From Oscillospiraceae bacterium (GTDB lineage Bacteria; Bacillota; Clostridia; Oscillospirales; Oscillospiraceae): a DNA stretch of 64,000 nucleotides. A program made the position numbers and the translations under genes. Numbering within the stretch: position 1 is the first letter of the stretch; each line of letters begins with the position of its first letter. Location: contig WRNV01000004.1 in assembly GCA_009776445.1 (NCBI GenBank), positions 427 through 64,426 of the forward strand, given 5' to 3'. Shown piece by piece: positions 1,098 through 44,543 of this stretch. The notes beneath the pieces were generated by a model that saw only the letters and a program-made list of their open reading frames with translations, ran no database searches and was not told the origin of the DNA.

Positions 1098-1673
1098 TTA
1101 TATGGTCAGTTGCAGACCTAAATATACTGCGTCTTTATCGTCTTGCGTCACTCCCAAGTATCTACGTGTAACCTCAAATGAGCTGTGGTTGTAAATTTCC
1201 ATAATGACTGCCGGGGACACGCCGCTTTTCCAAGCGTGGTAGCCGAAAGTCTTTCGCAATGAGTGGCAAGAAACCGGATACTGAAGCTGCAGCGCTTCCG
1301 CAGCTGCGCGTATAAGCCGGTAAGCTTGGATTCTGCTGATAGCCTTTTCCGTTTGACGGTTTTCAATCAGAAAACGCCCACTGAGCGCCGCTTCTTCGGC
1401 GAACGCGGCGAGCGACTGTTTGGCAGCACTGTTGAGCGCTATGATTTTTTGCTTGTGTGTTTTTACCTCGGTAACGCTGATACTTTTGCGGATACGGTTG
1501 AGATCGAAGTCGTATACATCGTCCCAAGTCAAGCGAAGAAGGTCGCTGATTCTGAGAGCGGTGTGGACTCCGAGCACGATGAGGACATGGTTTCGCCGTT
1601 GCCCTTTCTGTAGATAAAACCCCGCTAGCGCGCGGACTTCCTGCCTGTTCCTAATTGGTTGAGTGGTTGCCAT
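1098..1673 (-). CDS. Small tyrosine recombinase/integrase (catalytic domain only, 191 aa)
   Basis: Catalytic signature in order: ALRISD (Arg), HSLRKT (His-x-x-Arg), NHSS (His), RRYLG (Tyr nucleophile). RBS AAAGGAGGAAA lies upstream of the ATG. Confidence 0.85.
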   Translation of the reverse strand: MATTQPIRNRQEVRALAGFYLQKGQRRNHVLIVLGVHTALRISDLLRLTWDDVYDFDLNRIRKSISVTEVKTHKQKIIALNSAAKQSLAAFAEEAALSGRFLIENRQTEKAISRIQAYRLIRAAAEALQLQYPVSCHSLRKTFGYHAWKSGVSPAVIMEIYNHSSFEVTRRYLGVTQDDKDAVYLGLQLTI

Positions 1674-1703
1674 TGTCTATTTCCTCCTTTAGTAATTTAT
1701 TGC

Positions 1704-1776
1704 ATGTAACATAGTTCCTATTATGTTACATATGCGAATTATTTGCATATGTAACATAATAGGAAACATGTTACAT
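1704..1776. repeat. Four copies of ATGTAACAT/ATGTTACAT arranged > < > <, forming two inverted 28-bp lox/dif-like sites
   Basis: 9-mers at 1704-1712, 1723-1731, 1749-1757 and 1768-1776. The 10-nt spacers AGTTCCTATT and AATAGGAAAC are near reverse complements. Arms 1703-1735 and 1745-1777 match 31/33 as an inverted repeat. Confidence 0.8.
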
Positions 1777-1909
1777 AGTGCCCTCCCCAGTTGATCCAAC
1801 TCGCTTCAATTGGGAGATCGGCGCGCGGCGTAGCGTACGTTCATGACAAAGCCAGCGGGAAGAGCTGAGAGCATTCTTTATAAAATTATAAAACAGGAGG
1901 ATCACGAGA

Positions 1910-3412
1910 ATGACAAGCAGATACATGCTTCAGAGTCAAAAGAAAGAAAACTGGTCGTTTACTAAAACGCTTATGATCATACTTTGCGTAGCTGTATTAT
2001 CTTCGCTTTGCGGACCTTTCAGTTTAGCAGCGGATACAGCCTCTATTAGCGTGGGGCAAGCGTCCGCTAAACCCGGCGAAAGTATAACGATTTCAATATC
2101 TCTTGACAGCAACCCTGGAATTGCGGCATTGAATATCAAAATTGAGTATGACTCAACAAGATTGCGCATAGACAACCAAAACGCAATCGCAAGAGGGCCG
2201 GCGCTTGGATTTCTTACGTTTGTTGGGGCAAACGAAGTTACTTATGGCAACAATCCATTTTCTGCCATATGGTATGGCGCAATGAATGAGACGTCAACAG
2301 GGACACTACTGAACGTAACATTCACCGTATTGGCTAATGCGCCAAGTGGCTTGGCGTATGTTAGAGCTAACTGCGATTCAGGCGATGTATTAGACCTTTA
2401 TGAAGAACAAATCCCGATTTCAATAATGCAAGGCAGCGTGAATGTTTCGTCTGGCAGTGGAGATACTTCTGACCCCCAAAAAAACACGCCACCTACACCT
2501 CCGCCTCCAGTCGCGAATACGCCGATTGAACAATTCAGCAAGTTGATCGAAAATGCCGTTGTGCAATTTGAGGATGTGAAAACACTGCCAGACAACTTCC
2601 GAGCGTTGATTGCTGACCGTCCGGTATTTTCAATACAGGCGGATGCTACCGGAAGTCTTGCAAAAGTATCCATACCCTACACCTTAAAAGTAGGGCAAAT
2701 GCCTGAAAGTCTACTCGTTTATCATATAGATTCGTCTGATTCTTTAAGTATTGTAAAGCTGTGTCTATATGATGAAGCTGATTCGAGACTGAAGATGATC
2801 GGCTCTGTCGGAGAAAGATACATGATAGGGGAAAGCAAAATTAGCTTCACAGATGTCGCTGAAAACGCTTGGTATTATCGCGCTGTTTCATTTGGAGCTG
2901 CGCGTAAATTGTTTGAGGGAGTAGGAAACAACCTCTTTGCGCCTCAAGGGACGATGACGAGGGCAATGTTTATAACAGTACTTGCGAATTTTGACGGTGA
3001 GGATGTATCGAAGTATACAAACTCACCGTTTACTGATGTAAATATCGAATCGTGGTACGGTACAAAGGTTACGTGGGCAATGGAAAATGGTTTGCTTGAC
3101 GGCGGAATACTTGTCGGAACCGAACCCGGGACGTTTGATCCGAACGGTTTTATGACGCGGGAGCAGCTAGCCGTGTTGCTCGATAACTATATTACATATA
3201 AAGACTTGACTGTGCCGGAAGTTACAGGTAACGCTCTGGAGTTTTCCGATATTGAGCAAGCCAGTGAGTGGTCGCGTTCCTCAATTCGCAATATGCGTAC
3301 TTATGGAACCCTAGCGGGAGTGGGCAACAACCTCTTTAGTCCGAAAGGTGAAACCACCCGGGCCGAGATGGCCCAAATCCTTTACAATCTGATTAGTGTT
3401 CTGGTCAGTTAA
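1910..3412 (+). CDS. Secreted cohesin-domain protein with three C-terminal SLH domains (putative S-layer-anchored scaffold)
   Basis: RBS AGGAGG. Signal peptide. Cohesin-like ISVGQASAKPGESITISISLDSNPGIAALNIKIEYDSTRLRI. Pro-rich linker. Three SLH repeats (FTDVAENAWYY..., FTDVNIESWYG..., FSDIEQASEW...). Confidence 0.8.
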   Translation: MTSRYMLQSQKKENWSFTKTLMIILCVAVLSSLCGPFSLAADTASISVGQASAKPGESITISISLDSNPGIAALNIKIEYDSTRLRIDNQNAIARGPALGFLTFVGANEVTYGNNPFSAIWYGAMNETSTGTLLNVTFTVLANAPSGLAYVRANCDSGDVLDLYEEQIPISIMQGSVNVSSGSGDTSDPQKNTPPTPPPPVANTPIEQFSKLIENAVVQFEDVKTLPDNFRALIADRPVFSIQADATGSLAKVSIPYTLKVGQMPESLLVYHIDSSDSLSIVKLCLYDEADSRLKMIGSVGERYMIGESKISFTDVAENAWYYRAVSFGAARKLFEGVGNNLFAPQGTMTRAMFITVLANFDGEDVSKYTNSPFTDVNIESWYGTKVTWAMENGLLDGGILVGTEPGTFDPNGFMTREQLAVLLDNYITYKDLTVPEVTGNALEFSDIEQASEWSRSSIRNMRTYGTLAGVGNNLFSPKGETTRAEMAQILYNLISVLVS

Positions 3413-3508
3413 TATATGGAACAACTCAAAGCGCAATAATGGAATCAGGAGGGGTAAACGGTGTCACAAAATCTTTCAATCAAAAAAAATATGAATCAGG
3501 AGGGCAAC

Positions 3509-6500
3509 ATGAAAACAAACAGGATGTTCAAAAAATCTTTGGCGATGCTACTATCACTCATCATGATTCTCAGTATGGCGCCGCTTGCGGCAGTCGCGGA
3601 AGGCGAGTCAGAATACTTGGGGGGCGAGACTATTGCTATCGAGCCGCTTCCGGATACGATGGAGTCGCAGTCGGATTTGTCTGATACGGAAATAACCTCT
3701 GACGTGGAGATAACTCCAAGTCTTGCGGAAACAGGCTTTATTGGTATTCAAGCATCATCGTCAGGCGCGGATCCCGGCTTAGACCTTTTGCTTGCTGGGT
3801 ATAATATGTTTGGTGGAACAGAATTCTGTCGAAATAATACGATTGCGCTTGTTACTCCCGTAGGACGAGCAACGTTAGAGCAAGTAAACAATAACGTTGG
3901 ATTTATGAATTTTACAGGAGGTAACAGAGCGTCTTATCAATTTTACGCTGCGAGTAACATGGAATATTTGGCAAAAAGTAAAGGTCTGGATATTTTCGAA
4001 AGCGTCTCAAGAGGGATTGGTTATGAAAATGAAGTCAAAGTTGGGGCTGAAGTGAAATATGGGCCAGCGAAATTCACAGCCGAACAGGTTTTGAAAGCTT
4101 CCGCCAAAGCAGGATTCACACAAACTAATCAAAACACCTCTAATTACTCGTATGCTAATTCATACGAAAACTTCTTTTCTGTCATGGAAATCCGTAGAGA
4201 ACTTGGGCGAAACCACATCATTGACGTTAACAGTTTACGTACAAACAACGCGTTATATTGGAACGCGCTTTCACAAGACGCCAAAGATGCCTTATTGGGT
4301 GTAGGTGTTAGTGGTTCAAATATGGATCTGCTGTTTAGCACATATGGTACACACATTATTACTTCATATAACTTTGGGGGTCGCACGGAACATTACACAT
4401 CCATAATAAGAACAGCTTCACAGTCCGAAGAAAGCATAATGAGTCTCACAGGTAACGGTTCTTCAGGCGGAATAAACATTTTAGGGCTGCAAGCAAGCGT
4501 CGATAAAAACAAAACCACCATCGAAACGGCTGAAACTCTCGCAGCTACTGGGAGATACGAATATAGTGTCAAAAGCTATGTTTTCGGAGGCAACATGAGC
4601 TTGGGTAGCGCGCTTGACCCAAAATCAGATCCTGTGGATTTCGATAATTGGCTAAACTCAATAAGTCCAGCAGATCCCGTAAACACAACAGAAGTATTTG
4701 TTGATGATAAGCTTGAATTAGTGGGAATATGGGAATTGCTTCCTCCTGGAAACGAAGCTCGACAAGCGGAAATTCAAAAAGCCTTCCTTGATAAATACCG
4801 CAGCTATGACATGAACTTTTTCGAGAATTACATTTACAATGTGGCGAATATCATAAAAGACATGGAAAAGCCGCAGTACGACAGCAGCTACTATCCAATA
4901 TCAACTGCGGCAGAGTTGGCTGCTATCGGTTCTAACGCCACTACGCTTTCGCGAAATTACATTCTGACAAACGATATTGACTTATCAGGCAGCGCTTTTT
5001 GGACGCCCATCGGTTCACAGAGCGATCCATTTACGGGAAGATTTGAAGGGAATGGGTGTACAGTAAGTGGAGTCCAAGTTGCCCCGAATAGTCCGGCTCC
5101 AGGATTATTTGGATATAACAACGGAACTATTAGGTATCTTAGCGTAATCTACAGCTCTCGATATGGAGGCGTCGCAGGTGCCAGTAACGGAACTATCACA
5201 GATTGCTATGCGGAGTTTGCCCATAAATCACCTACACAGACTATTGAGATAACAAATACAACAACAATCATGCCGACATTCGCAACTGTCGCAAACAGCA
5301 CCGTTTTATTAGATTTTACAAACAGAACAACATCAGGTTTTAGCGATATGTCGATAATAGTTCCAAGTACGGTGCAGACAGTGATTTTTCGCGGAGTTGG
5401 GATAATATATACATCACTAAACGTTGCTATTCAAGGTAATAACACTGATGTCGTTTTTGAGAATTTCAACTTTAGAGGTACATCTTCCAGCACGGCTACA
5501 GCAGCCTTATACTTTACCGGTTCCAATCCGGGATTAATTTTACGCGGAACAAGTAACACGATAACAGGGTATGGAAGATATGCTAACAGCAATGGTTCTC
5601 GCTCTGTAGTCGAAGCTAACGGCAATTTGTATATTTGTGGAAACGCGGATTTTACCGTTGTCCATGATAATACTTATTCGTCTTCAACATCAGGTGACTT
5701 TGGGAAAAATGCTATTGGTGTTGTCGAAACATTGGACATTGCTCTTGGAGCTGCATTGACAGCTAAAGGCGGTGATGGTCGTGGAGGTTCTAATGGCAGT
5801 AATGGCAGTCCTGGAGCGGATAATTTCAATGGATGGAAAGATGGAGAAGCAGGTAAGCCTGGATACGATGGCTCCAGTGGCGGAAATGGCGGAAATGGAA
5901 TATCTACGAATAAACTCAACATATTAAATAACTCTAGTATAATTGCTACTGGTGGGGACGCTGGAAACGGGGGAGACGGAGGAACTGGAGGAAAAGGAGG
6001 AAGAGGTGGCGATGCAATGGTGGCCGGAAATGGTGGTATTGGAGGTGCTGGTGGCTATGGCGGCACAGGAGGTCGTGGAGGTAAAGGCGGCACTCCGCTA
6101 GTAGCAGAAAGCCATAACCTTAATGAACCACCTCTCCAATACTATTTAAACCTAAATGTAGGCAAAGGAGGCGTAGGCGGTTCAGGTGGTTATGGTGGTT
6201 ATGGTGGTCAAGGTGGAGCTACCCTTAATTTTTATTTGACAGTGTTAAGAAGGAATTCAGGTGGAGATGGTGGCAGAGGTGGCGCGGGTGGCGTGGGCGG
6301 ATACCATGGTCTCCTTGATATTGTCGGGGGTATAAATGAAACTACTGGTTATTACTATACAGCGGCTGGTGGTACTGGCGGTTATGGCGGAAGCGGCGGA
6401 TTCCCTAATGGAATATCATATACCTCGACCCGCGCGAGTTCTGGCGCATCCACCCTGCTTACTAATGAAGCTACCTACTTGACGAAAACACTAGGGCAAA

Positions 6501-8944
6501 AGTCAACTATAACCCTAAATACCGCTTTGTGGACGACAATACTTAATCAGTTCACCATTGGCATCGGTAGTCCTAACTTTGTGAAACTGTCGTACTATCC
6601 TGGAGACATATTTGATCCTTCGGGCTTTGTATTTATGAATAAAAACGGTTCAACAATACCGTACAGCTCAATAGATTTCAAATATGATTTTTCTAGTTTT
6701 GGGCAGACCCTTGTAACTGCAACCTACTATGTGGGTTCCGTTGCCATTGTCCGGTATATACCTGTTAAGGTAGAGCGCCCCACAGTGGATAGCATAGAAC
6801 TGTTTAAGCCCGCCAGAACACAATTCTATATAGGACAAGACTTTGATTCCCAAGGGATTGCGATAGATATAAATTATAGCGATGGTCACACAATAATTCT
6901 TACGGATGGGATTACAGTCACTCCTCCAGAAGATGTTACATCTACAGCAGGTACGAAAACAGTTTCTGTTTCACGTCCGGCATATGAGGGTACCTTTAAC
7001 CATCCAGGCATTTCGGAGTTTTCCAGTTCGTATCAAATAACCGTTGAAAATGATTTTCCGGTTAAACTTGAGGTTATTAACAAGCCTACTGTTATTCAGA
7101 TGGAAGGCAATGTATTTAACTCAACAGGTATGAGCTTTAGGGTCGAGTATATGAGCGGTGCTATAGATACAATTTACCCATCCAGCTTGACTTTTTCTCA
7201 TGGCTTGCTAAGTTCTCCAAACCCGAATTTCCCGATTACAGCTACTTATAGCACATCGGTAATTGTCAGTTGTACGTTTACAGTAGAAGTTTTGAGAGAT
7301 CCAATAATTAGACTCGAACTTAGTCCTACTCTAGTTCCAAGCTTATATGCTGGAGATATCTTTAATCCTGTAGGCTTAACTATCAGCGCTGTGCGTGAAA
7401 GTTCGCGAAAAACCGTCTTGCCGTGGAGTGATATTGACGTCCAACCGGATAGAACCTTACTGCAATCGGACAATGAACTCACCTTCATTTACTTCGATGC
7501 TATAGGTGGAAATTTTATAACTCTGCATGAGCCGATAACCGTTAGCCCTGTTGTACAAATTGGCATTGAAATTTCTCAGATGCCCACAAAGCAAAACTAT
7601 ATTGAGGGGGATTCATTTGACTCAGAAGGAATGATTGTAGACCGTGTGTTTAACAATGGAAACCGGGAAAGTGGTATTTCTGGATACGGTCTTTCCCACG
7701 GTGTATTAAGTTTAAATGATAGTTTCATCACAATAACAGATAATGGGTTTGAAGAATTTATTCCAGTGTTTGTTAGAGAAAAGCGCGTAACTACGCTTGA
7801 ATACACCCAACTACCCACTAAAACCGAATATGAAGAAGGTGAATATTTCGACCCAGCTGGAATGGTGGTTCAGGGAACATATGACAATGGGTATATAGAT
7901 TATAATGTAATGGGTTACGACTACTACCCAGATCGCCCGCTTATTGTTGAGGATACGGAAGTTATTATTTCATATGGCGGGGAGTCAACTAACATCCCTA
8001 TCACCGTTACGCCAGTCAAGCCTACTGGAGTGACGCTAAACAGAACAGCTCTCACGTTGTTCGTTGGATACTCAGGGATAATACTTGAGACAGTCCTTCC
8101 AGATAACGCGGCTGATAAAAAGGTGACGTGGAGCAGTGATGATCTTACGGTTGCGTCGGTTGATGAATTTGGTGTTGTAACTGCATTGGCGGAAGGAACG
8201 GCGATTATCACAGCAACAACTATAGAAGGAGACTTCTCCGCGAGTTGTAGGATAGACGTTGTTTTGGAAACCTCGTCGCTCATCACAGTATCCTCCGCTA
8301 CGGCTTTACGTGACAAAACAGTTACAGTAAATATTGACATTGAAAACAATCCGGGGTTTGCCGGAATGACACTCAAGGTGAGTTTCCCGAAAGAATTGAC
8401 TTTAACCCGATATGATCTTGGGGATATGGACTTGATTTTCGGATTCACTGGTCCCGATGGTGTTTTGCCAGGCGCAGCTTGCGACATATCAGACCAACTC
8501 TACTTAGTTTGGGGACGAACTTCAAACTACACGCAGGATGGAACGATTGTAACGCTGACATTCTCAATAGCGAATGACGCGCAACCGGGTGAATACCCTG
8601 TTCTTGTCACATTTGAACAGCATAACGGTCCTCGAACACCTGTTAATCTCCAAGAAACCCCTCTCGATATTTACATCATGGACGGAACGATTATCGCATT
8701 GCGGTGCATTCTCGGTAACGTAACCGATAGTGGTGAAGTTGGGCCGGCAGACTTGGTAAGACTAGCGCGATGGATAGCCGGTCATCAGGGTGTGTATATC
8801 AACGAATTTGCCGCTGACATCACAGGGCGCGGCGAAATTGGGCCTGCCGATCTCGTTAGGCTTGCGCGATGGATAGCTGGACATTTTGGCGATATGACTC
8901 TTGAAGAATTACGAACAAGACCAGATACAGGAGGTAGTCAATAG
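3509..8944 (+). CDS. Giant secreted multidomain protein: MACPF - GLUG - Gly-rich solenoid-like region - 6 Big_3-like - Big_2 - cohesin - dockerin
   Basis: Start chosen at ATG 3509 (CAGGAGGGCAACATG; MKTNRMFKKSLAMLLSL signal peptide). The ORF is open from GTG 3461. Domain motifs are listed under the sub-features and findings. Confidence 0.8.
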   Translation: MKTNRMFKKSLAMLLSLIMILSMAPLAAVAEGESEYLGGETIAIEPLPDTMESQSDLSDTEITSDVEITPSLAETGFIGIQASSSGADPGLDLLLAGYNMFGGTEFCRNNTIALVTPVGRATLEQVNNNVGFMNFTGGNRASYQFYAASNMEYLAKSKGLDIFESVSRGIGYENEVKVGAEVKYGPAKFTAEQVLKASAKAGFTQTNQNTSNYSYANSYENFFSVMEIRRELGRNHIIDVNSLRTNNALYWNALSQDAKDALLGVGVSGSNMDLLFSTYGTHIITSYNFGGRTEHYTSIIRTASQSEESIMSLTGNGSSGGINILGLQASVDKNKTTIETAETLAATGRYEYSVKSYVFGGNMSLGSALDPKSDPVDFDNWLNSISPADPVNTTEVFVDDKLELVGIWELLPPGNEARQAEIQKAFLDKYRSYDMNFFENYIYNVANIIKDMEKPQYDSSYYPISTAAELAAIGSNATTLSRNYILTNDIDLSGSAFWTPIGSQSDPFTGRFEGNGCTVSGVQVAPNSPAPGLFGYNNGTIRYLSVIYSSRYGGVAGASNGTITDCYAEFAHKSPTQTIEITNTTTIMPTFATVANSTVLLDFTNRTTSGFSDMSIIVPSTVQTVIFRGVGIIYTSLNVAIQGNNTDVVFENFNFRGTSSSTATAALYFTGSNPGLILRGTSNTITGYGRYANSNGSRSVVEANGNLYICGNADFTVVHDNTYSSSTSGDFGKNAIGVVETLDIALGAALTAKGGDGRGGSNGSNGSPGADNFNGWKDGEAGKPGYDGSSGGNGGNGISTNKLNILNNSSIIATGGDAGNGGDGGTGGKGGRGGDAMVAGNGGIGGAGGYGGTGGRGGKGGTPLVAESHNLNEPPLQYYLNLNVGKGGVGGSGGYGGYGGQGGATLNFYLTVLRRNSGGDGGRGGAGGVGGYHGLLDIVGGINETTGYYYTAAGGTGGYGGSGGFPNGISYTSTRASSGASTLLTNEATYLTKTLGQKSTITLNTALWTTILNQFTIGIGSPNFVKLSYYPGDIFDPSGFVFMNKNGSTIPYSSIDFKYDFSSFGQTLVTATYYVGSVAIVRYIPVKVERPTVDSIELFKPARTQFYIGQDFDSQGIAIDINYSDGHTIILTDGITVTPPEDVTSTAGTKTVSVSRPAYEGTFNHPGISEFSSSYQITVENDFPVKLEVINKPTVIQMEGNVFNSTGMSFRVEYMSGAIDTIYPSSLTFSHGLLSSPNPNFPITATYSTSVIVSCTFTVEVLRDPIIRLELSPTLVPSLYAGDIFNPVGLTISAVRESSRKTVLPWSDIDVQPDRTLLQSDNELTFIYFDAIGGNFITLHEPITVSPVVQIGIEISQMPTKQNYIEGDSFDSEGMIVDRVFNNGNRESGISGYGLSHGVLSLNDSFITITDNGFEEFIPVFVREKRVTTLEYTQLPTKTEYEEGEYFDPAGMVVQGTYDNGYIDYNVMGYDYYPDRPLIVEDTEVIISYGGESTNIPITVTPVKPTGVTLNRTALTLFVGYSGIILETVLPDNAADKKVTWSSDDLTVASVDEFGVVTALAEGTAIITATTIEGDFSASCRIDVVLETSSLITVSSATALRDKTVTVNIDIENNPGFAGMTLKVSFPKELTLTRYDLGDMDLIFGFTGPDGVLPGAACDISDQLYLVWGRTSNYTQDGTIVTLTFSIANDAQPGEYPVLVTFEQHNGPRTPVNLQETPLDIYIMDGTIIALRCILGNVTDSGEVGPADLVRLARWIAGHQGVYINEFAADITGRGEIGPADLVRLARWIAGHFGDMTLEELRTRPDTGGSQ
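3770..4750 (+). other. MACPF (membrane-attack-complex/perforin) domain region
   Basis: Signature YGTHIITSYNFGG (nt 4343-4381) fits (Y/W)-G-(T/S)-H-x7-G-G. There is an upstream AGYNMFGG, a second FGGN, and a C-terminal W..SI...P....LELVGIWELLP tail typical of the family. Confidence 0.65.
8030..8262 (+). other. Big_2 (bacterial Ig-like group 2) module
   Basis: VTLNRTALTLFVGYSGIILETVLPDNAADKKVTWSSDDLTVASVDEFGVVTALAEGTAIITATT. Confidence 0.7.
8281..8698 (+). other. Cohesin-like module inside the MACPF protein
   Basis: ITVSSATALRDKTVTVNIDIENNPGFAGMTLKVSFPKELTL resembles the cohesins of the two flanking genes (NPGFAGMALKISYP in the downstream gene, NPGIAALNIKIEYD in the upstream gene). Confidence 0.55.
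8710..8892 (+). other. Dockerin-like duplicated segment (degenerate Ca-binding loops)
   Basis: Two 22-residue-type segments, GNVTDSGEVGPADLVRLARWIAGH and ADITGRGEIGPADLVRLARWIAGH. Confidence 0.55.
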
Positions 8945-9795
8945 TGGAGATTAACAAGCTATTTAGGGCTCGTAGGATGCTTGCATCAGTGCTTACGTGT
9001 TTACTTGTATTAACTCTATACCCTACTATTATGTCCGTTTACGCCGCTGGTGCGATGCTCACTTTGCAAGTCGATTCAGGGCTGTACGCTCCAGGTGAGA
9101 CTTTCACTGCCGACATTGTTATGAGCGATAATCCAGGCTTCGCAGGGATGGCACTAAAAATCAGCTACCCTAGAGGTATTGAGGCGACCCACATTCGCCC
9201 GATTGGCTCAAATCCTCAAGATATGGGGGAAATGATGGATTTGATAAGTGGGCTGACGTTACCCGATGGCTGGGTTTCCGGAAGCGGAGCTTTACCCGCG
9301 CCTATTCCCGATAAATTTTACTTGGTATGGGGGCGTTCATTCAATTATACAGCTTCCGCTACATTATTTGAAGTTACTTTTCAAGTGACACAAGATGCTA
9401 TTGTTGGCGCAAATGTGATAGATATTGCCTTTGAAGGCGCTCAAGGGCCGCGCGCTCCAGTTAATCTTGCGGAGCAGCCGCTTACTATTGGCTTGACTCC
9501 CGGAACGGTTACGATCCACAGGCCTAGTAGTTTTAAAATTTACGATTCAAACTTCCAGCCCGCGCCAAACAACATAACGCTGTCCGTAGGTAGTACCGCG
9601 CAATTTTACGCGACGTTAGACGGAGCATTGACTATAAGTGGTATCAAATGGGTTATCGCGGATTCGCGACTTGCTACTGTCAACACTTATGGGTTAGTCA
9701 GCGTCAATAAAAACAAATATACAGGGCAATTGGTATTGATGCTCTATAGCTCCGAGAATAAGTTACTGGACAGTATCACGTTGAGGATAGTTTAG
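8944..9795 (+). CDS. Secreted cohesin-like plus Big_2 protein
   Basis: The GTG start shares one nucleotide (8944) with the upstream stop codon, and AGGAGG lies 9 nt upstream. Signal peptide. Cohesin-like LQVDSGLYAPGETFTADIVMSDNPGFAGMALKISYP. C-terminal Big_2-like ITLSVGSTAQFYATL...ATVNTYGLVSV. Confidence 0.7.
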   Translation: MEINKLFRARRMLASVLTCLLVLTLYPTIMSVYAAGAMLTLQVDSGLYAPGETFTADIVMSDNPGFAGMALKISYPRGIEATHIRPIGSNPQDMGEMMDLISGLTLPDGWVSGSGALPAPIPDKFYLVWGRSFNYTASATLFEVTFQVTQDAIVGANVIDIAFEGAQGPRAPVNLAEQPLTIGLTPGTVTIHRPSSFKIYDSNFQPAPNNITLSVGSTAQFYATLDGALTISGIKWVIADSRLATVNTYGLVSVNKNKYTGQLVLMLYSSENKLLDSITLRIV

Positions 9796-9884
9796 CAGTA
9801 GTTTATCGACTGAGAAACATCTTTGGGATATGAGAAGGAGGAAGGTGGAACGATAGAGGCATAGAAATAGCTTTCAAAACGTAA

Positions 9885-9991: not shown

Positions 9992-11002
9992 ATGAAAACA
10001 AACATTAAAACAACATTACTATTGCTTGCGGCACTCGTGATTATCGGCTCGCTTCTTTGCGCGCTTGTCGGGTGCGCCCAAAACGAAGTAGTTGATATCC
10101 ACAACCCCGAAGACCTGGTTCCTCCCATATATGAAGGCGACATAGCGGATTTGGAGCAGGAAATGATCCCGTTATCGTCCTCGCCTCCTATGTTCACCAT
10201 ATCAATGCCAACAGCCCCGGGAACCAACACAAAGAAAAACAACAAAGCGGAAATCGACTATTCCAATACAAAAGATGGATATATCATGGTTAGGTTTCTG
10301 CAAAGCACCAGCAAACAATTGCGTGTGATTATCAAGGGACCAAGCGCGGTACAGTACACGTACACCTTGAAAACTAACGGGGACTACGAAGTATACCCAC
10401 TTTCTGACGGCAACGGGAGCTACATGGCTACTGTTTACGAGCAAATAGAAGGTACAAGGTACTCAACAGCAAACTCCGCTTCGTTCGACGTGACCCTAAA
10501 TGACGAATTCGCGCCGTTCATACGCCCAAACCAATACGTAAACTATAAACCCGACAGCAAAACAGTCGCGAAGGCTGCCGAACTCATAGGGAACGTCGAT
10601 GATTTACCCGGAAAGATTTCCGCGATTTACAATTTTGTCATTAAAAACTTGACATACGACAGAGAACTAGCCGCGACCGTCCAAAGCGGCTATCTGCCCG
10701 ACGTAGACGTCATCTTGGAAAAGGGCAAAGGCATATGTTTCGACTACGCGGCTGTTATGACGTCGATGCTACGCAGCCAGGGAATCCCAACAAAACTTGT
10801 GGTGGGATATGCCGGTCAAGCCTACCATGCGTGGATAAACGTATATTCCGACGAAACAGGCTGGATAAACAATGTTATATTTTTCGATGGCAAAACGTGG
10901 AAGCTTATGGATCCCACATTCGCGTCCACAGGTAAACAAAGCTCGACCGTAATGAACTACATAGGCGACGGTACTAACTATACATCGAAATTCCTCTATT
11001 GA
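9992..11002 (+). CDS. Transglutaminase-like (papain-fold) lipoprotein
   Basis: Lipobox LLCALVGC. Transglutaminase core GKGICFDYAAVMTSMLRSQGIPTKLVVGY...YHAWINVY...WKLMDPT (Cys-His-Asp). Confidence 0.8.
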   Translation: MKTNIKTTLLLLAALVIIGSLLCALVGCAQNEVVDIHNPEDLVPPIYEGDIADLEQEMIPLSSSPPMFTISMPTAPGTNTKKNNKAEIDYSNTKDGYIMVRFLQSTSKQLRVIIKGPSAVQYTYTLKTNGDYEVYPLSDGNGSYMATVYEQIEGTRYSTANSASFDVTLNDEFAPFIRPNQYVNYKPDSKTVAKAAELIGNVDDLPGKISAIYNFVIKNLTYDRELAATVQSGYLPDVDVILEKGKGICFDYAAVMTSMLRSQGIPTKLVVGYAGQAYHAWINVYSDETGWINNVIFFDGKTWKLMDPTFASTGKQSSTVMNYIGDGTNYTSKFLY

Positions 11003-11074
11003 CGCATAGCACAGTATCTATACTCGCGGTCGAAAGTATATCTTGCGGTATCTCTATTGAAATGAGGTCGCGCG

Positions 11075-12121
11075 ATGAAAAATAAAACATTGACTAGTTC
11101 ATATCTGTCCGCGCTATGTTCTGAACTCGCGATGCTGCTCGACGCCGGACTCACTGCTATTGATAGCGTTCAGATATTGCAAGACGACGAGCCGGGTAAA
11201 GAAGGCAAAGCGATCATGCAAATCCTGATTGACACGCTTGAAATGGGCGAGCCATTGTCCGCCGCGCTCAAAGGCTCAGGCCTTTTCCCCCGTTATATGG
11301 CGCATATGGTGGAAATCGGCGAAAAAACAGGTCGCTTAGTACAGACGCTGGGCGCTCTTTCCGAATACTACGAAAGGCAAGTCAGACTATCGTCTACCAT
11401 CAGGAGTTCCGTTCTGTACCCTGCGGTGCTGCTCGCACTGATGGTAGTTGTGGTATTGATCCTTATTGTACAGGTCTTGCCAATATTCAACGATGTGTTT
11501 AACCGGCTCGGCGCGCAGATGTCCCCCTTGGCCGACAGCTTAATGCGGTTCGGTGGGTGGCTTGGAAACGCCTCAGCGGTTATCGCGGTTATTTTCGGCG
11601 CGATATTTATATTGGCTATTATCGTTTGGGCTGTGCCAAGCATTCGCAAAAGTCTCACAAAAGGGTTTTCCGATAGGTGGGGCGATAGAGGCGTTTTTGG
11701 CAAAATAGCGTCGTCCCGATTCGTATTTGCCATGACGCTTGGGATGGCAAGCGGGCTGGACACGGCTGAAGCCATCGATATCGCGGCCGCTGTCAGCGGC
11801 GGTTCAAAAGCCATAGACAATAAGCACAAGCGGTGTTCGGGCTTGCTGAGCTCTGGCAGCACGCTTTCCGAAGCGTTGTGCGGCGCTGGCATACTCTCGC
11901 CACAAGATGGCAAGATGCTGTCTATCGGGAGCCGTAGCGGCAAGGCGGACGCCGCAATGGCTGAGATCGCGCGTAGAAGCGACCTTGATGTACAAGACAG
12001 AGTGGGCCGGCTCGTCGGTAAGATCGAGCCCACGCTTGTTATAATATCGTCAGCAATAGTTGGCGTTATCTTGCTTTCGGTCATGTTGCCTCTAATGGGT
12101 ATTATGACCGCTATAGGTTGA
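11075..12121 (+). CDS. Type II secretion / type IV pilus platform protein (GspF/PilC family)
   Basis: 348 aa. Duplicated GspF-type helical domains with three TM segments (LSSTIRSSVLYPAVLLALMVVVVLILIV..., C-terminal TLVIISSAIVGVILLSVMLPLMGIM). Confidence 0.85.
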   Translation: MKNKTLTSSYLSALCSELAMLLDAGLTAIDSVQILQDDEPGKEGKAIMQILIDTLEMGEPLSAALKGSGLFPRYMAHMVEIGEKTGRLVQTLGALSEYYERQVRLSSTIRSSVLYPAVLLALMVVVVLILIVQVLPIFNDVFNRLGAQMSPLADSLMRFGGWLGNASAVIAVIFGAIFILAIIVWAVPSIRKSLTKGFSDRWGDRGVFGKIASSRFVFAMTLGMASGLDTAEAIDIAAAVSGGSKAIDNKHKRCSGLLSSGSTLSEALCGAGILSPQDGKMLSIGSRSGKADAAMAEIARRSDLDVQDRVGRLVGKIEPTLVIISSAIVGVILLSVMLPLMGIMTAIG

Positions 12122-12180
12122 TTGATTTATTGGTTGATTGGTTGATTGGTTGATTGGTTGGTTGGATGGTTGATTGATTA
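12118..12180. repeat. 8-bp tandem repeat (TTGATTGG)n, about 8 units with 3 perfect
   Basis: ttgattga tttattgg ttgattgg ttgattgg ttgattgg ttggttgg atggttga ttgatta. Fills the whole gap between the GspF stop and the next start. Confidence 0.9.
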
Positions 12181-12182
12181 AT

Positions 12183-12512
12183 ATGCGAAAAAGGATATAC
12201 AAAGCAAACGCTTGGGATTTTCTTCGTGGCGCGATAGTCCCCATCCTCTTCACAGTCGCCGTGATGCTTATGATCGTCTATGGTTTGTCGCAGACGGAGC
12301 GGTCAAGCAGGGTTGAAGGCTTGCGGATACTTGAGGACAGCATACGCCGCGCCACAGTTATGTGCTACGCTGTCGAGGGGCGATATCCTGATACTATTAA
12401 ATACCTCGAAGAGAATTATGGGATACGTATAGATTGGTCTAAATATGCCGTACACTACAGCATTTTCGCCTCAAATCTCTTCCCTGACATAACGGTAATA
12501 GAGCTAGTATAG
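12183..12512 (+). CDS. Small membrane-anchored protein of the pilus-like operon
   Basis: Single N-terminal TM (GAIVPILFTVAVMLMIVYGL). The ATG at 12183 is preferred over the TTG at 12174. No clear SD. Confidence 0.5.
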   Translation: MRKRIYKANAWDFLRGAIVPILFTVAVMLMIVYGLSQTERSSRVEGLRILEDSIRRATVMCYAVEGRYPDTIKYLEENYGIRIDWSKYAVHYSIFASNLFPDITVIELV

Positions 12513-12549
12513 CTTAAGTTGTGGGTAGATACAACTTTGGGAGTTCCAT

Positions 12550-13065
12550 ATGGAATATAAAAACCGCCGACGTCGTATTGATACTATTTTCGTTATGATA
12601 ATATTCTGTGTATTCGCCGTATCTGTGCTTATGGTGTTGATGCTTGGCGCGAAGATTTATGAAAATGTAACTGCAATGTCGCGTGACGGATACGCTGACC
12701 ATTCGATACTTTCTTATATTTGGACTAAAATAAAAAACAGCGACGACGCTGGGCGTATCTATATCGGGGAATTCTCCGGATTGCCCGCTCTTTTTATTGA
12801 GGAGCAATATGGTCAGATACAGTATATTACAACTATTTATGAGTATAATGGCTGGATCTACGAGCTGTTTTGCGAAATTGGCCTTGACTTTCTCCCGGAG
12901 GACGGCGTACAGATAGCGGAGCATGGCAGCTTAACGTTTGATATGTATGAAAACGGGCTGATAAAGGTATCTTCCTACGCAAAAGACCTGCTAATATTCC
13001 CACGCGGCAACGTAACCGGCGCTAACGCTCGCGATGCTTCCATCGGAGGGGGGCCGTCAGGATGA
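12550..13065 (+). CDS. Membrane-anchored protein (DUF4860-like) of the pilus-like operon
   Basis: RBS GGGAG. N-terminal basic stretch plus TM (IDTIFVMIIFCVFAVSVLMVLML). The family assignment is from memory only. Confidence 0.5.
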   Translation: MEYKNRRRRIDTIFVMIIFCVFAVSVLMVLMLGAKIYENVTAMSRDGYADHSILSYIWTKIKNSDDAGRIYIGEFSGLPALFIEEQYGQIQYITTIYEYNGWIYELFCEIGLDFLPEDGVQIAEHGSLTFDMYENGLIKVSSYAKDLLIFPRGNVTGANARDASIGGGPSG

Positions 13066-13502
13066 ACCAGCGTTCGAGATCCACTCTATTTTTGATAGAA
13101 CAGTTGATCGTCGTCGCTGTGTTCGCGATTTGCGGGGCAGCTTGCGTCAGTATCCTAACTTCTGCATATCTTACGGCAAGGGACTCCAAGGACATAGTAA
13201 ACGCGATTTCGGTCGCCGAAAGTGGCGCAGAAAGTTACAAGGCGACTGGCGGCGATATGATCAAAGCAGTAGAAATGCTGGGCGGCGGCGCTATCAGCAA
13301 CTCAGACGGCGCATATGAAGCGATCATATACTATGACAGGCAGTGGCATATCTGCGCAATAGATGAAGCGTTCTATGCTTTCCGCATAATTCGCAATGGG
13401 CCTGAAAATCGGCCCACGTCTTTGATAACAGACAAAATCCTTGTCGAAAAGCTCACTGGCGAGACCTTAATAACCTTCAATGTCGCCGCTAACCCACCGT
13501 AA
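13062..13502 (+). CDS. Pseudopilin-like protein (non-canonical prepilin N-terminus)
   Basis: STLFLIEQLIVVAVFAICGAA resembles the class III signal (x-TL-IE plus hydrophobic helix) but lacks the Gly at -1. Overlaps the upstream gene by 4 nt. Confidence 0.55.
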   Translation: MNQRSRSTLFLIEQLIVVAVFAICGAACVSILTSAYLTARDSKDIVNAISVAESGAESYKATGGDMIKAVEMLGGGAISNSDGAYEAIIYYDRQWHICAIDEAFYAFRIIRNGPENRPTSLITDKILVEKLTGETLITFNVAANPP

Positions 13503-13543
13503 TTATACTCGCGGTCTGAACAGTAGCATAGGGGTGATCGTCT

Positions 13544-14020
13544 ATGAAAAATGGTGGGATTGGCGTCGGCAGCGCTTCGCTTGTTCTTGTTTTCGCGGTA
13601 CTGTGCCTGACGGTGTTTTCCCTCATCACGTTCGTGGTTGCCGGAAACGACAAAGCTCTGACTGACGCCGAAGCGAAACTGGTGGCCGGTTACTACGAAG
13701 CGGATGCCTTTGCCGAAAACATCGTCGCGGAAATCGTTGGAGACGACGATATACCTGACAGTGTCGGCGGCATTGACATAACGTATGAGCAGGATTTTTC
13801 GACAGGCGAAAAAATAGCGAGTTTTGTATGCCCAATCTCCAGCCGGAAGGAACTGTACGTTAGCGTAGCTCTAAGCGGGGAATCATACGACATACTCAGT
13901 TGGCGGATGTTTGATATTGGGCAGTGGGCCGTCGACGACAAGCTGAACGTGTGGCAAGGACCGGACGAATCCGAGACCGGAGACCCAACGGATGTTTTAT
14001 CAAAACTGAAAGTGGATTGA
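13544..14020 (+). CDS. Membrane-anchored protein of the pilus-like operon
   Basis: N-terminal TM GSASLVLVFAVLCLTVFSLITFVVAG. In operon context. Confidence 0.5.
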   Translation: MKNGGIGVGSASLVLVFAVLCLTVFSLITFVVAGNDKALTDAEAKLVAGYYEADAFAENIVAEIVGDDDIPDSVGGIDITYEQDFSTGEKIASFVCPISSRKELYVSVALSGESYDILSWRMFDIGQWAVDDKLNVWQGPDESETGDPTDVLSKLKVD

Positions 14021-14042
14021 GTTAATGAGAAAGGATAGGCAT

Positions 14043-15098
14043 ATGGTGCTTGATTGGCTAAAAAAGGCGGTATATGAAGGCGCTTCAGACATTTTCATTG
14101 GAGCGGGCCGCAGCGTCGCGTTTAAAAAGAATGGCATAATAAGTTCCCAAGACAGTGGGTTCATCTCCCCCGCCGAAGCGGAAGAACTGATAACTGAACT
14201 GTATACTTTGGGGAAAAGACCGACAAAAAGATATATAGAAAGCGGGGACGACGACTTCCCTGTTACCGTCCCCGGCCTCGCCCGCTTCAGGGTGAATACG
14301 TACAAACAGCGTAGCACGATGGCTGCTATTATACGGGTCGTTATGTTCAACATCCCTGATTATAAGGCGCTGCTCATCCCCGACGAAGTTATGGCAGTGG
14401 CAGGAGAGAATAACGGACTGGTGCTTGTTACAGGACCTGCCGGTGGCGGGAAATCGACGACTCTCGCTTGCGTCATCGACGCGATTAACAAATCCCGGAA
14501 TTGCCATATCATAACTTTGGAAGACCCCATCGAATTTCTTCACCGGGACAACCAGAGCCTTGTCAGCCAACGCGAGGTGTCCACTGACACCGAATCGTAC
14601 AAGGTCGCGCTACGAGCTTGCCTAAGGCAGGCGCCGGATATTATCCTGCTTGGTGAAATGCGCGACTATGATACGATAAGGACGGCGATAACAGCCGCTG
14701 AAACAGGACATCTCGTTATTTCGACGCTACACACAGTTGGCGCTTCGAATACAATTGACCGCGTCATCGACATATTCCCGTCGGAGCAGCAACAGCAGAT
14801 ACGCGTCCAGCTCTCTATGGTACTGCGCATGGTGGTTTCACAGCGACTACTGCCAAACATAAACGGCGAATCCATCCCAGCGTTTGAGATCATGCGGGTC
14901 AATAACGCGATCAGTAATATTATCCGTGAAGCAAAAACGCATCAGATCGACAGCGTTATCCAGACTTCGGCGCAAGACGGTATGATTGGTATGGACGCGT
15001 ACATACTTAGGCTGTACCGCAAGGGCGATATCACCGCTGAAACAGCCTTGAGAAACGCTTCAAACCCGGACTTAATGAGTCGGCAGCTTCGGAACTGA
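14043..15098 (+). CDS. PilT/ComGA-sized secretion ATPase (GspE/PilT superfamily)
   Basis: MVLDWLKKAVYEGASDIFI N-terminus. Walker A GPAGGGKSTT. LGEMRD Asp box. TGHLVISTLHT His box. An alternative ATG lies at 14025. Confidence 0.85.
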   Translation: MVLDWLKKAVYEGASDIFIGAGRSVAFKKNGIISSQDSGFISPAEAEELITELYTLGKRPTKRYIESGDDDFPVTVPGLARFRVNTYKQRSTMAAIIRVVMFNIPDYKALLIPDEVMAVAGENNGLVLVTGPAGGGKSTTLACVIDAINKSRNCHIITLEDPIEFLHRDNQSLVSQREVSTDTESYKVALRACLRQAPDIILLGEMRDYDTIRTAITAAETGHLVISTLHTVGASNTIDRVIDIFPSEQQQQIRVQLSMVLRMVVSQRLLPNINGESIPAFEIMRVNNAISNIIREAKTHQIDSVIQTSAQDGMIGMDAYILRLYRKGDITAETALRNASNPDLMSRQLRN

Positions 15099-15142: not shown

Positions 15143-18100
15143 TCATTCGCCGGCCCATACTTCGGAGCCGGCGCCATTTGGCCTTGAGTAATCGTGGGCG
15201 TGATATGCTTCCATTATGTCATAAAACGCCCAATGCGACGACGCGACGTCAGAAAAACGCTCCTGTTCCAGATGAGTGTCAATGTACACTTTGTCCGCCA
15301 AACGATCAAGCGCCCTGTTCATGATCGTTACGACTTCCGCGCGGCTGATCTGTTGATCAGGTTTGAAACTCCCGTCGTTGTACCCGATAATCCATCCGAA
15401 CCGGATCGCTACGTCGATGTGCTCAAACGCCCAGTGCTCCACGGATACGTCGTCGAACGAACCATCCGGCAAAGTATCCGGCGCGTATTTCGCGAAACGC
15501 GTCAGAACAGCGACAAATTCCGCGCGGCTGATGCTGTCTTCAGGATGGAAGCGCCCGTCTGGGTATCCTTCGACTATGCCTATTGAAGCTAGCGTGTGTA
15601 CCGCCCTTTCGTACCACGCGCCTACCAGAACGTCTGGAAACCGCTTCGATATCTCCACGTTTTGTTTGCTAAGCAGGTTGAAGAACATCTGCGCAACCTC
15701 CGCCCGTTTCATATCCCTATCCGGCGCAAAGATACCCCCGCCGACCCCGCGTATATATTGTATATGCTCATCGACTGTCAGCAAGTTTAATGCGCTGCTT
15801 GTTTCTCTGGTTTCTTTACCGTTGCCGACATCATTTTTTCCAGGATCATATATCCTGCCCTGGTTTTTGTTTTGGTCTTCCGGCGGTTCTATGGTCGACG
15901 TATCCGCTTTATAAACAGCAATAACTTGTTTGCTGGGGCTTACGAAGAACTCTCCAAACGGTTTTATTTCAACTTCAACCGTCCCCTCCGTCCCCACGCT
16001 GCTAAGGCCTAATGTCCAAGCGTTGCTGGCGGCTTCGTAGCCAGGGGATAGCGCGCTTTTCTCCGCCGTCCCTGTCATATCGCGGATCGTGACGTCATAA
16101 ACAGTCAAGCCCGATATCATCACCGGCGCGCTAGAGTCTTGCTCGACAAATGAGATCGCGATTCCCTCAGAGTCAGCCTTTCCGGGTATTCCTCCTGTCT
16201 GTTCGGCAGTAAAACTTATTGGCTTGAGCGCCTGGAGTTTGATAAATCGATCCTCGTCATAGTATTCGAACTGTATGTCTGATGTGCCGGTAGTGGCGTC
16301 GTCGCCATCATAACTGCCGCTGTACTCCCAGCGGTAGTATTCGTTTGCCGGGCCTTCGCCAGCGCCGCCGATCCAGCGTATCGCCGTTTGGCTACCTTGG
16401 GCTGTGATCGAGCCGCCGATTATTGACAAACGTCCCGAATTCCCGAGATCGACGCCAAATTCGCCTTTTGCTGCCAGCTCGCCACTGCCCTCAATTATGA
16501 TATTACTGTCTGATTTCAGCCCGTTTGTTCTGCCTTCGAAGACGCTGTTGCCATAGGATATGACCGTCGTGTCGCCTACAAGCGTCAGCGCCGTAGACGC
16601 GTTCGTAGTCCAAAAGAATTCATACAATGTCAGCTTTCCAGGTTCCCCGTCCCATAATGTCCCCTGCCAGTCGTTGGAGGGATCGAACGGAGCGTCTAGA
16701 TTAGTGCCAGACAGTGTTCCGCTTTCATCGATGTCATAATACAGTTTTCCTTCCGCCGCGTTAAAAACCAGACCGCAATCTCCGCGCACGTCGGCATTGA
16801 GAGCAGTAAATTCAGGTGTTAATATTACGTCACAATCCGGCATGTCAAACTCCGCCGGGTTTTCTTCATTGCCGCCCGAAATCACAACGCCACCCGCCAC
16901 GTTCCATTGATTGAATTCATAGCCGACGTTGGCAACAGCCGTCACGTTGATAGGCGTCCCCGCCAAATAATCGCCCGCAACCGTGCCGGACGTCCCGCCG
17001 CCTTCGCTGGAACCAATAATCAGTTTGTAGAGTATTGCTTTGTACACATTCACGGGTACGCTACTTGGTTGCAAAACGTAGAAGTCTCCAAAATGCCCTA
17101 TTTCGACATTGACCGTCCCCTCCGCGACCACGCCCTCAAGCGCTACCATCCATGTGTCGCCGTATCCCGTAAGCGCGCCAACGGGCGCGACCGTCACTGC
17201 TCCAGTGTCATCTGTTATATCAATATTGTCAATATATAAGCCGTCTACTGGTTGGTCGAAAACCAGCGCGATGCCCGCCGTATCGACCATACCTGGGACG
17301 CCGCCTTTTTCAACCGCACTAAAACTGATTGGTTTTAGCGCCTGGAACATTATAAACTGATCCTTGACAAAGTACTTAAATGGATCCTCCGGGCTGTACC
17401 CCGAGTCCGAATCGCCGCCGTCATAGCCGCCGCCGCCGTCGTAATCAATGCTCCACGACCATCTGTAGTACTGGGACGTCGTACCCGGACCGACTGAATC
17501 GTCAGGCCCTTCGAAGTTGACTGCCTTGCCTCCCTGGGCAATAAACGCGCCGCCGTTGATCGTGAGATCCATTATACCAATATCGATTCCATAGCAGTAT
17601 GTTCCCGAACCAGTATCGTTCCTCCCTTTGGCTGTCAGCGTCCCTGAACCGTTGACGGTCAGATTGTAGCTGTTTGACCTGATCCCGCATGAATAGCCTG
17701 ACTTGGATGTTGATTCAAACGTGCTGTCCCCGTCAAGAATGATCTCTACATCCGCTCCTACGACTGTCAGAGAGGTTCGTGCGGACGTTATCCATGAAAA
17801 TCCTCTGAGCGTAAGCTTTCCAGGTTCCCCCGACCAGTATCCGTCAAATATCCCAACGGCATATGGCTCCGCCAGATTGATGTCGGAAAGTCCGCCCGTT
17901 TGATCGACGTCAATATACATCATGCCGCTGGATGCGTCGAAAATAAGCCCATATTCATTAGTAACCGTTACTGGAGTCAGCAGGAAAAAACCGGCCGTCA
18001 CGCCACTGATGTATTGGATCCCGCTACCCAGCATTGGGTCGAAATACCAGTACAGCGTGTTGCTACCGATCGAGTAATTCAAGTCATGCGTATTTGGAGT

Positions 18101-19654: not shown

Positions 19655-19756
19655 ACTTATCGCTCCCAATTATAGTAATATATCTACATTATACATCATC
19701 ACTCGCCGTATTTCTACATATTTATCATCATTATTTTATGTAGCCAAGGTGTATAC

Positions 19757-34894: not shown

Positions 34895-35304
34895 CGCCGG
34901 TTATATACTGTAGTGACTTTATTACCTCTGGGATAATCATTGACGCTTTTATTTCAATTCATGAACGCTTTAATTAGTATCGCCAACGTATTGGTTATAT
35001 ATCTGCTGGCATCAAGTTTTCATTTTGGGACATATAACCTTCAATAAACGCTACCTGAGCGATCAATGAAATATTGGATTAACAACTACTCCTCGTTGTC
35101 AACCCGTTAGTCGTCATTAAAATCGCCAGGTGTAAGATTGAATATTCCGTCATCTGTGGTTCCCGGCGGCACAAGCTCAACTGTGGCCGGGTTGAACTCC
35201 GATATCGTCACGTTAATGCGTTTTTTCATTGATATCAGTTCTCCTGTTTGTTTCGGCATTTCTTTCACTTTCTTTCTGGGTCTTGCGTTATATTTCTCTA
35301 TCAT
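34895..35304 (-). pseudogene. Decayed internal-deletion paralog of the 36748-39156 dockerin gene
   Basis: The 5' end (VKEMPKQTGELISM vs MKEMLKHTRKLVSI) is fused directly to the C-terminal region (INVTISEFNPATVELVPPGTTDDGIFNLTPGDFNDD). The dockerin continues in frame through at least 3 stops (DD*RVDNEE*LLIQYFIDRSGSVY*). Confidence 0.75.
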
Positions 35305-44540: not shown

Positions 44541-44543
44541 CGA

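Follow-up and report, generated by a model that had tools for sequence, protein, structure and literature searches.

A stretch of 64,000 nucleotides (nt) from contig WRNV01000004.1 of an Oscillospiraceae bacterium (positions 427 to 64,426), referred to here as the window, carries a three-gene operon, g1-g2-g3, the products of which probably display a perforin-family (MACPF) domain at the cell surface, raised on a long stalk and attached by cellulosome-type modules. g1 codes for an anchoring protein, g2 for a secreted MACPF protein terminating in a fused cohesin-dockerin pair, and g3 for a small secreted cohesin protein. We read the operon as a dedicated surface-display system of a gut Oscillospiraceae bacterium, whose anchored and stalked MACPF protein would be able to perforate the cells it touches, and put the probability of this reading at about 0.5. 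The operon is conserved and joins two well-known systems in a way not described before: in the open-access full-text literature no paper joining MACPF with a dockerin, a cellulosome, or S-layer anchoring was found, and the single matches for perforin with dockerin and for MACPF with S-layer were irrelevant. Within that literature the opinion of the preliminary description of this DNA, that such a system had not been described, is borne out. MACPF proteins are known as soluble immune effectors and toxins, which must reach a membrane and oligomerise there. If the reading is true, a MACPF domain hard-wired to the cell surface through cellulosome-type modules would give the perforin family a new mode of delivery and cohesin-dockerin pairs a new function outside polysaccharide degradation, and it would indicate that Gram-positive anaerobes of the gut have an as yet unrecognised means of lysing prey or of antagonising other cells on contact. 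The fused cohesin-dockerin cassette and the glycine-rich bundle of g2 are also natural modular parts for protein engineering.

Genes and domains of the operon

The three genes are co-directional and tightly packed (Table 1), as the preliminary description had stated, the stop codon TAG of g2 (8942-8944) and the start codon GTG of g3 (8944-8946) overlapping by one G, with GGAGG 9 nt 5' of the latter. A search for terminator-like sites between g1, g2, and g3 found none. The mechanically delimited open reading frame (ORF) of g2 begins with GTG at 3461, while the likely start is ATG at 3509, located right behind AGGAGG. The N-termini of all three products, read by eye, have the features of signal peptides, i.e., a basic segment followed by a hydrophobic one and a site of the A-x-A type. 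g1 is identical to the NCBI protein MCL2151515.1 ("S-layer homology domain-containing protein") from an Oscillospiraceae bacterium metagenome-assembled genome. The full architecture of g2 is hidden in the NCBI annotation, since its entry there (P0106, "Ig-like domain-containing protein") records just the C-terminal 344 amino acids (aa); in the JGI and ENA gene calls g2 is present at its full length of 1,811 aa. A scan with NCBIfam gave no model matching g2 or g3.

Anchoring scaffoldins of cellulosomes, e.g., those of the SdbA/OlpB type of Clostridium thermocellum, combine a cohesin with S-layer homology (SLH) domains. g1 resembles them in having a signal peptide, a cohesin, and three SLH domains, the layout originally attributed to it, and is, judged by its sequence, a cell-surface anchoring scaffoldin.

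The MACPF domain of g2 is recognised by the Pfam profile PF01823 with 41.3-45.1 bits (cut-off 21.5) and carries the MACPF signature Y/W-G-T/S-H-F/Y-x6-G-G in the form YGTHIITSYNFGG, with Ile in the F/Y slot. The G, T, and H of the signature and the first motif glycine (G206) are invariant across 18 relatives, and the second glycine pair (the hinge glycines) is likewise invariant in the family. An AlphaFold2 model of aa 86-470 built on 18 family sequences (predicted local distance difference test score, pLDDT, 79.5; predicted template modelling score, pTM, 0.76) comprises a bent beta-sheet in the centre and, flanking it, the helical clusters TMH1 and TMH2, the prospective membrane-hairpin regions, of 71 and 48 residues, respectively. 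Foldseek comparison of the model with the PDB gave 33 chains at E <= 1e-3, every one of them a MACPF-family entry, with Mpf2Ba1 (8b6v, E 1.5e-10), Plu-MACPF (2qp2), GNIP1Aa (6fbm), and Bth-MACPF (3kk7) as the best matches and perforin and C9 coming next. The sequence of TMH1 displays an amphipathic beta pattern, its beta-periodic hydrophobic moment being beaten by 2.7% of shuffles (p about 0.03). By profile, signature, and predicted fold, the last matching solved MACPF toxins, g2 is a member of the MACPF/CDC superfamily, and the original MACPF assignment is upheld.

The MACPF domain is followed by the stalk, which begins with a predicted beta-helix. Pfam did not detect Glug in g2 itself, but aa 459-571 show similarity (E 2.6e-29) to four repeats in P0003, a protein annotated as Glug, and one g2 relative has a Pfam Glug match at the equivalent position. 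A second AlphaFold2 model, covering aa 456-1100, has a pLDDT of 76, and its beta-helix gave weak Foldseek matches to an SRRP beta-helix adhesin and a putative IgA1 protease (5nxk, 3n6z). The glycine-rich region behind it is modelled as neither helix nor strand, with a pLDDT of about 81-88 at about aa 756-835 and lower, patchier values after that; its closest PDB match is the springtail antifreeze protein 7jjv (E 5.6e-4), a polyproline-II (PPII) bundle, and its glycines are invariant in the family alignment. It is worth mentioning that the region is ~230 residues long and that bundles of the PPII type are rare. It might be the target-binding part of g2. In the model the first Big_3 module comes after the glycine-rich segment; a repeat search seeded with one such module located motifs at aa 1026, 1096, 1197, 1358, and 1435, while a sixth Big_3-like motif, at ~aa 1272 (SLYAGDIFNPVGL), was read straight off the sequence. 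Thus, of the stalk initially proposed for g2, the glycine-rich region, the six Big_3-like modules, and Big_2 are recovered, and GLUG is supported indirectly, through P0003, the relative, and the predicted fold. On account of the domain order and the predicted structures, g2 reads as a MACPF head, a long modular stalk, and a terminal docking cassette.

The docking cassette consists of a cohesin, which when scanned alone by Pfam reached 25.4 bits against a cut-off of 24.1, and, after a gap of about 4 residues, a dockerin composed of two near-identical segments ending GPADLVRLARWIAGH. The latter falls short of the Pfam cut-off but aligns over both repeats to the solved dockerins 6kg9 (E 1.1e-4) and CelS 1daq (E 1e-3). 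Family hidden Markov models (HMMs) detect in the window exactly three cohesins and three dockerin-like modules. The cohesins are of two types, A in g1 and B in g2 and g3, with the g2 and g3 cohesins each matching that of g1 at about 1e-6; the dockerins also fall into two types, one in g2 and the other represented by a related pair in the proteins encoded at 31159-34839 and 36748-39156. In Pfam the g3 cohesin scored 16 bits, below the cut-off, and is recognised by its similarity to the g2 cohesin, while the Big_2 domain ascribed to g3 is just a weak match, likewise below the cut-off (17.7 bits vs 22.8). Comparison of the window with the related locus L001 gave identities of 83% for the dockerin, 59% for the g2 cohesin, 57% for the g1 cohesin, and 34% for MACPF, and by this pattern the docking modules are clearly under constraint. 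In the proteins of P0002 and L010 the g2 dockerin is 83-89% identical. That it is a decayed dockerin was considered and rejected, since it is the best-conserved module, odd loop residues included.

Table 1. Positions of the operon, its domains, and other features of the window (nucleotide numbering of the window).
Feature	Position	Strand	Details
Tyrosine-recombinase gene	1098-1673	-	short, divergent
Near-perfect palindrome	1704-1776		73 bp, 36-nt arms, 92% complementary; between the recombinase gene and g1
g1, anchoring protein	1910-3412	+	500 aa; signal peptide, type-A cohesin, middle region, 3 SLH
g1 type-A cohesin	about 2045-2443	+	Pfam Cohesin E 2.5e-10
g1 SLH domains (3)	about 2843-3397	+	Pfam SLH E 1.5e-25
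g2, secreted MACPF protein	3509-8944	+	1,811 aa; fused cohesin-dockerin C-terminus; Pfam; identical protein P0001
g2 MACPF domain	3764-4918	+	aa 86-470; Pfam PF01823, signature YGTHIITSYNFGG, AlphaFold2 and Foldseek
g2 GLUG-type right-handed beta-helix (predicted)	4874-5767	+	about aa 456-753; AlphaFold2 all-beta, Foldseek, P0003 match
g2 glycine-rich GGxGGxGG region	5768-6463	+	about aa 754-985; predicted polyproline-II / polyglycine-II type bundle
g2 Big_3-like modules (6)	6566-8008	+	about aa 1020-1500; Pfam Big_3 E 1.2e-16
g2 Big_2 domain	8024-8248	+	aa 1506-1580; Pfam E 1.2e-13
g2 type-B cohesin	8282-8692	+	about aa 1592-1728; Pfam Cohesin 25.4 bits, family HMM E 1e-39
g2 dockerin	8705-8881	+	about aa 1733-1791; solved-dockerin matches, family dockerin HMM E 1e-18
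g3, secreted protein	8944-9795	+	283 aa; signal peptide, type-B cohesin, weak Big_2-like end
g3 type-B cohesin	about 9070-9516	+	matches g2 cohesin, E 4e-29, 45% identity
Surface-machinery stretches	9992-15098, 15143-19669, 26932-31068, 43815-50992		
Adhesin-like protein	31159-34839	-	1,226 aa; DUF11, Big_6, isopeptide-type domains (NCBIfam: DUF11, isopeptide)
Second-type C-terminal dockerin of the 1,226-aa protein	about 31222-31380	-	Pfam Dockerin_1 22.9 bits, exactly the cut-off
Remnant ORF	35107-35304	-	ends "VELVPPGTTDDGIFNLTPGDFNDD"
802-aa protein	36748-39156	-	Flg_new, DUF6273; C-terminal dockerin-like module at about 36751-36999

Relatives of g2 and conservation of the operon

An exhaustive search with the MACPF domain among 1.84 billion representatives gave 90 clusters at E <= 1e-3, mostly of long proteins, the family thus being small and well defined. 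A profile derived from the 18-sequence MACPF alignment found only 3 matches in a word-indexed protein collection, a scan of a genome collection one distant locus, and a scan of metagenomes 35 loci. Pfam applied to 28 family members recognised MACPF in 26, Dockerin_1 in 19, a cohesin in 16, Big_3 in 16, and a C-type lectin domain in 4; local HMMs applied to the 49 representatives with a length of 900 aa or more found a dockerin in 28 and both a cohesin and a dockerin in 23. The dockerin starts 2-9 residues past the cohesin in all but two of these 23 proteins, and several family members have a cohesin-dockerin-cohesin arrangement. We know of no description of such a fused cohesin-dockerin didomain. 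Some of the relatives add lectin, leucine-rich repeat (LRR), and FG-GAP modules. Judging from these sequences, a MACPF family with cohesin-dockerin is rare but real.

The operon itself recurs in relatives, whose loci and proteins are denoted here by L and P numbers. L010 is an orthologous operon, coding for a protein with three SLH domains (74% identity to g1), a MACPF protein with cohesin-dockerin (70%), and a cohesin protein (54% to g3); its MACPF protein has an additional N-terminal LRR, and its best-conserved module is the dockerin (89%), with the odd loop residues kept. In L001 a gene for a cohesin with three SLH domains, the source of the g1-type cohesin compared above, lies immediately upstream of that for a 2,309-aa g2 relative. 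In L003, L004/L011, and L028 a cohesin gene is located downstream of the MACPF gene, and the downstream proteins of L003 and L004/L011 have the cohesin at the N-terminus, behind a signal peptide. In L003 (6724-9117) and L004 (7907-11137) the cohesin of the downstream protein is followed by Cys-rich CxxC...CxxC repeats, which also occur between two cohesins of P0002 (aa about 2010-2090) and look like an extracellular zinc-ribbon-like repeat. L009 comprises remnants of g1 and g2 and, after them, an intact gene of the g3 kind, whose product combines three SLH domains with a type-B cohesin (62% to g3).

In two relatives, SLH domains are fused straight onto the MACPF protein: L038 is a single protein with MACPF, Glug, and SLH, and P0058 combines MACPF with two cohesins and three SLH domains. 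These fusions are the strongest indirect evidence for S-layer display, and owing to them the MACPF family appears to be meant for the S-layer, surface display being well supported, though indirectly. Apart from Ga0082212, the JGI sets with relatives are presumably of termite-gut origin. Ga0082212 itself, which also holds relatives, is a metagenome of a higher-termite gut (PMC8124441).

Proposed assembly, known systems, and alternatives

According to the preferred reading, g1 would serve as an S-layer or cell-wall anchor with one cohesin socket. g2 would be exported, with the MACPF domain at its far N-terminus and a stalk of roughly 1,300 residues composed, in order, of the GLUG-type beta-helix, the glycine-rich PPII-type bundle, six Big_3 modules, and one Big_2, followed by cohesin-dockerin. 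The dockerin of g2 would most likely plug into the cohesin of the SLH-anchored partner, g1 in this operon and, in relatives, a g3-type protein. Plugged in this way, g2 would hold its MACPF domain tens of nanometres beyond the producer's wall, where the domain could assemble into oligomers on the membrane of a touched cell, be it a competitor or prey, and perforate it. The spare cohesin of g2 and the cohesin of g3 would be further sockets, available either for a second cargo, such as the adhesin-like dockerin proteins encoded at 31-39 kb, or for chaining.

Compared with cellulosome components, g2 is like adaptor scaffoldins in bearing both a cohesin and a dockerin, the latter in the duplicated two-segment form. 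Unlike in cellulosome scaffoldins, however, its payload is MACPF and not a carbohydrate-active enzyme, its cohesin and dockerin are fused nearly without a linker, and its calcium loops are non-canonical. Toxin complexes of Clostridium perfringens, comprising mu-toxin/NagH, NagJ, and NanJ, were reportedly found by Adams and co-workers in 2008 to be assembled by cohesin-dockerin pairs. They share with g2 the assembly of virulence-type proteins, rather than cellulases, by cohesin-dockerin, but their cargos are glycoside hydrolases (GH84, GH33) and no operonic S-layer anchor gene is known for them. A non-cellulose cohesin-dockerin system is also present within the same bacterial family in the form of the Ruminococcus bromii amylosome, the anchoring of which involves a sortase-type scaffoldin, not SLH. 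Its Amy4, like g2, carries both modules, and the Amy4 dockerin binds its own cohesin, permitting multimerisation (PMC4611034); unlike in g2, the cargo of Amy4 is an amylase, and the amylosome has no perforin-family domain.

The best structural matches of the MACPF model, Mpf2Ba1, GNIP1Aa, and Plu-MACPF (E 1.5e-10 to 1e-9), come from the insecticidal and insect-pathogen MACPF proteins and differ from g2 in being soluble Proteobacteria toxins of about 500 aa with a C-terminal beta-prism type domain, and the identity is 14-16%. Bacterial MACPF is also shared by g2 and BSAP-1 to BSAP-4, Bacteroidales proteins which act against other gut bacteria and have a separate receptor-binding domain (PMC4999547, PMC12853789), but the sequence relation is limited to the Pfam-family level. 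The BSAPs (Bacteroidales secreted antimicrobial proteins) are of small size, soluble, and made by Gram-negative bacteria, and lack cohesin, dockerin, SLH, and stalk, whereas g2 has 1,811 aa, comes from Oscillospiraceae, and ends in cohesin-dockerin, and so is not one of them.

Several observations weigh against the preferred reading. The g2 dockerin scored in Pfam 16.8 bits, below the cut-off of 22.9, and in the calcium loops of its first and second segments, which read N-T-S...D and D-T-R...D, respectively, N-x-T-x-S and D-x-T-x-R take the place of the canonical D-x-N-x-D ligands. Module conservation does not help to pick the partner of this dockerin, as the g1-type and g2-type cohesins are conserved in L001 to nearly the same degree. 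The copy of g3 in this genome has neither an anchor nor a dockerin, and the relatives L005, L006, and L007 are solitary, with no cohesin genes nearby. On the side of pore formation, TMH2 gave no amphipathic signal beyond shuffles in the hydrophobic moment test, neither an immunity gene nor a target is evident, and several bacterial MACPF proteins of solved structure are not known to be lytic.

The odd calcium loops, one of them with Arg at a calcium-ligand position, could be taken as a sign that the locus is decaying, i.e., that the dockerin has lost its calcium ligands, g3 its SLH domains, and the system no longer assembles. g3 is indeed shorter than the corresponding SLH-bearing protein of L009, a locus which is itself an example of such decay. 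However, the ORFs of all three genes are intact, no other module is as conserved as the dockerin, and the replacements are conserved in orthologues, the T-for-N substitutions recurring in L010, P0107, P0108, and P0110, which makes decay hardly credible. Another explanation is a self-polymerising arrangement, in which the g2 dockerin would bind the cohesin of the g2/g3 type, giving head-to-tail chains of g2 capped or nucleated by g3, while g1 would anchor the dockerin type encoded at 31-39 kb. Since self-recognition of this kind is known from Amy4, such chaining is a live alternative to tethering, although we consider it unlikely. It is favoured by the short cohesin-dockerin distance throughout the family, by the cohesin-dockerin-cohesin variants, by the presence of the same cassette on the fragment P0108, whose recovered part is without MACPF, and by the SLH domains of the g3-type cohesin protein in L009; it is opposed by the position of g1 directly upstream of g2 and its conservation alongside g2 in L010 and L001. 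Moreover, the cohesin and the dockerin of an adaptor scaffoldin are not known to pair with each other. A doubtful extension of the same idea treats the fused pair as a self-compatible, socket-regenerating cassette: chains or clusters of g2 anchored at the S-layer would carry pre-concentrated MACPF protomers at the stalk tips and, on contact, assemble a pore in a neighbouring cell. This would give Gram-positive gut bacteria a perforin weapon that works by touch, or an organelle of predation, and the adjacent recombinase and palindromic sites might switch or move it.

There are two further explanations. g2 could be one more giant surface adhesin, its MACPF domain serving for binding or in another non-pore role, in line with the many adhesin-type surface genes of the window (giant SLH proteins, pili, DUF11 proteins), with the beta-helix, Big_3, and Big_2 modules typical of adhesins, with the lectin, LRR, and FG-GAP modules of relatives, and with the result for TMH2. 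We find this rather doubtful, as conservation within this divergent family extends to the MACPF signature, the hinge glycines, and both of the helical clusters, and the nearest structures, Mpf2Ba1 and GNIP1Aa, are active pore-forming toxins. Alternatively, the operon could be an accessory to a larger system resembling a cellulosome, in which g1 would be the general anchor of numerous dockerin proteins, among them carbohydrate-active enzymes with genes elsewhere in the genome, and g2 one client. Cellulosomes do carry non-enzyme clients such as serpins and proteases, the view covers 64 kb of the genome, and the g2 dockerin subtype is also found on the protein fragments P0108 and P0110, which show no MACPF domain. 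Nevertheless, in several genomes the genes for the anchor and the accessory cohesin form an operon with that for MACPF, and no dockerin-bearing glycoside hydrolase was found in the window or in the operon-bearing loci examined, so that this explanation seems quite improbable. Pfam scanning of the large ORFs within the 64-kb window revealed no glycoside hydrolases; thus, the initial statement that the system is devoid of carbohydrate-active enzymes holds for the window, and by sequence its large ORFs lack the dockerin-bearing carbohydrate-active cargo that strictly defines a cellulosome.

Surroundings of the operon

The preliminary description had placed further dockerin-bearing proteins with adhesin-like repeats, and one decayed copy, downstream of the operon, and Pfam, phmmer, and the remnant ORF agree with it: DUF11, Big_6, and Flg_new are the adhesin-type repeats concerned. 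The dockerin-like modules of the 1,226-aa and 802-aa proteins are linked by phmmer (E about 1e-18), and both proteins are possible further cargo of the operon. The ORF at 35107-35304 repeats, in truncated form, the beginning of the 802-aa protein's dockerin region and lies in a gap of 40% guanine plus cytosine (GC) without long ORFs. The window is rich in surface machinery, including a transglutaminase-like lipoprotein, type IV pilus-type genes (T2SSF/T2SSE), two giant SLH proteins, and a sortase-pilin locus.

The palindrome located upstream of g1 consists of two inverted lox/dif-like units with 10-bp arms, ATGTAACATA/TATGTTACAT, and spacers of 8-10 bp, and could be a recombinase site or an operator. 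An invertible promoter was considered for the window and is unsupported, as the 73-bp palindrome flanks no segment. Large palindromes and pairs of inverted repeats 112-193 nt apart also occur directly upstream of the MACPF genes in L003 (1239-1496), L005 (796-969), and L040 (1661-1830), in two of these three loci beside an integrase or resolvase gene; their sequences are unrelated to that of the palindrome in the window. They might reflect phase variation or mobility, but could also be terminator hairpins. The GC content is 43-46% across 1098-9800, compared with 48-53% in the flanks, and the MACPF genes of the relatives L001, L003, L005, and L006 adjoin integrase, resolvase, ParA/ParB, and KilA-N genes; the low GC content of the operon and this neighbourhood suggest that MACPF loci ride on mobile elements.

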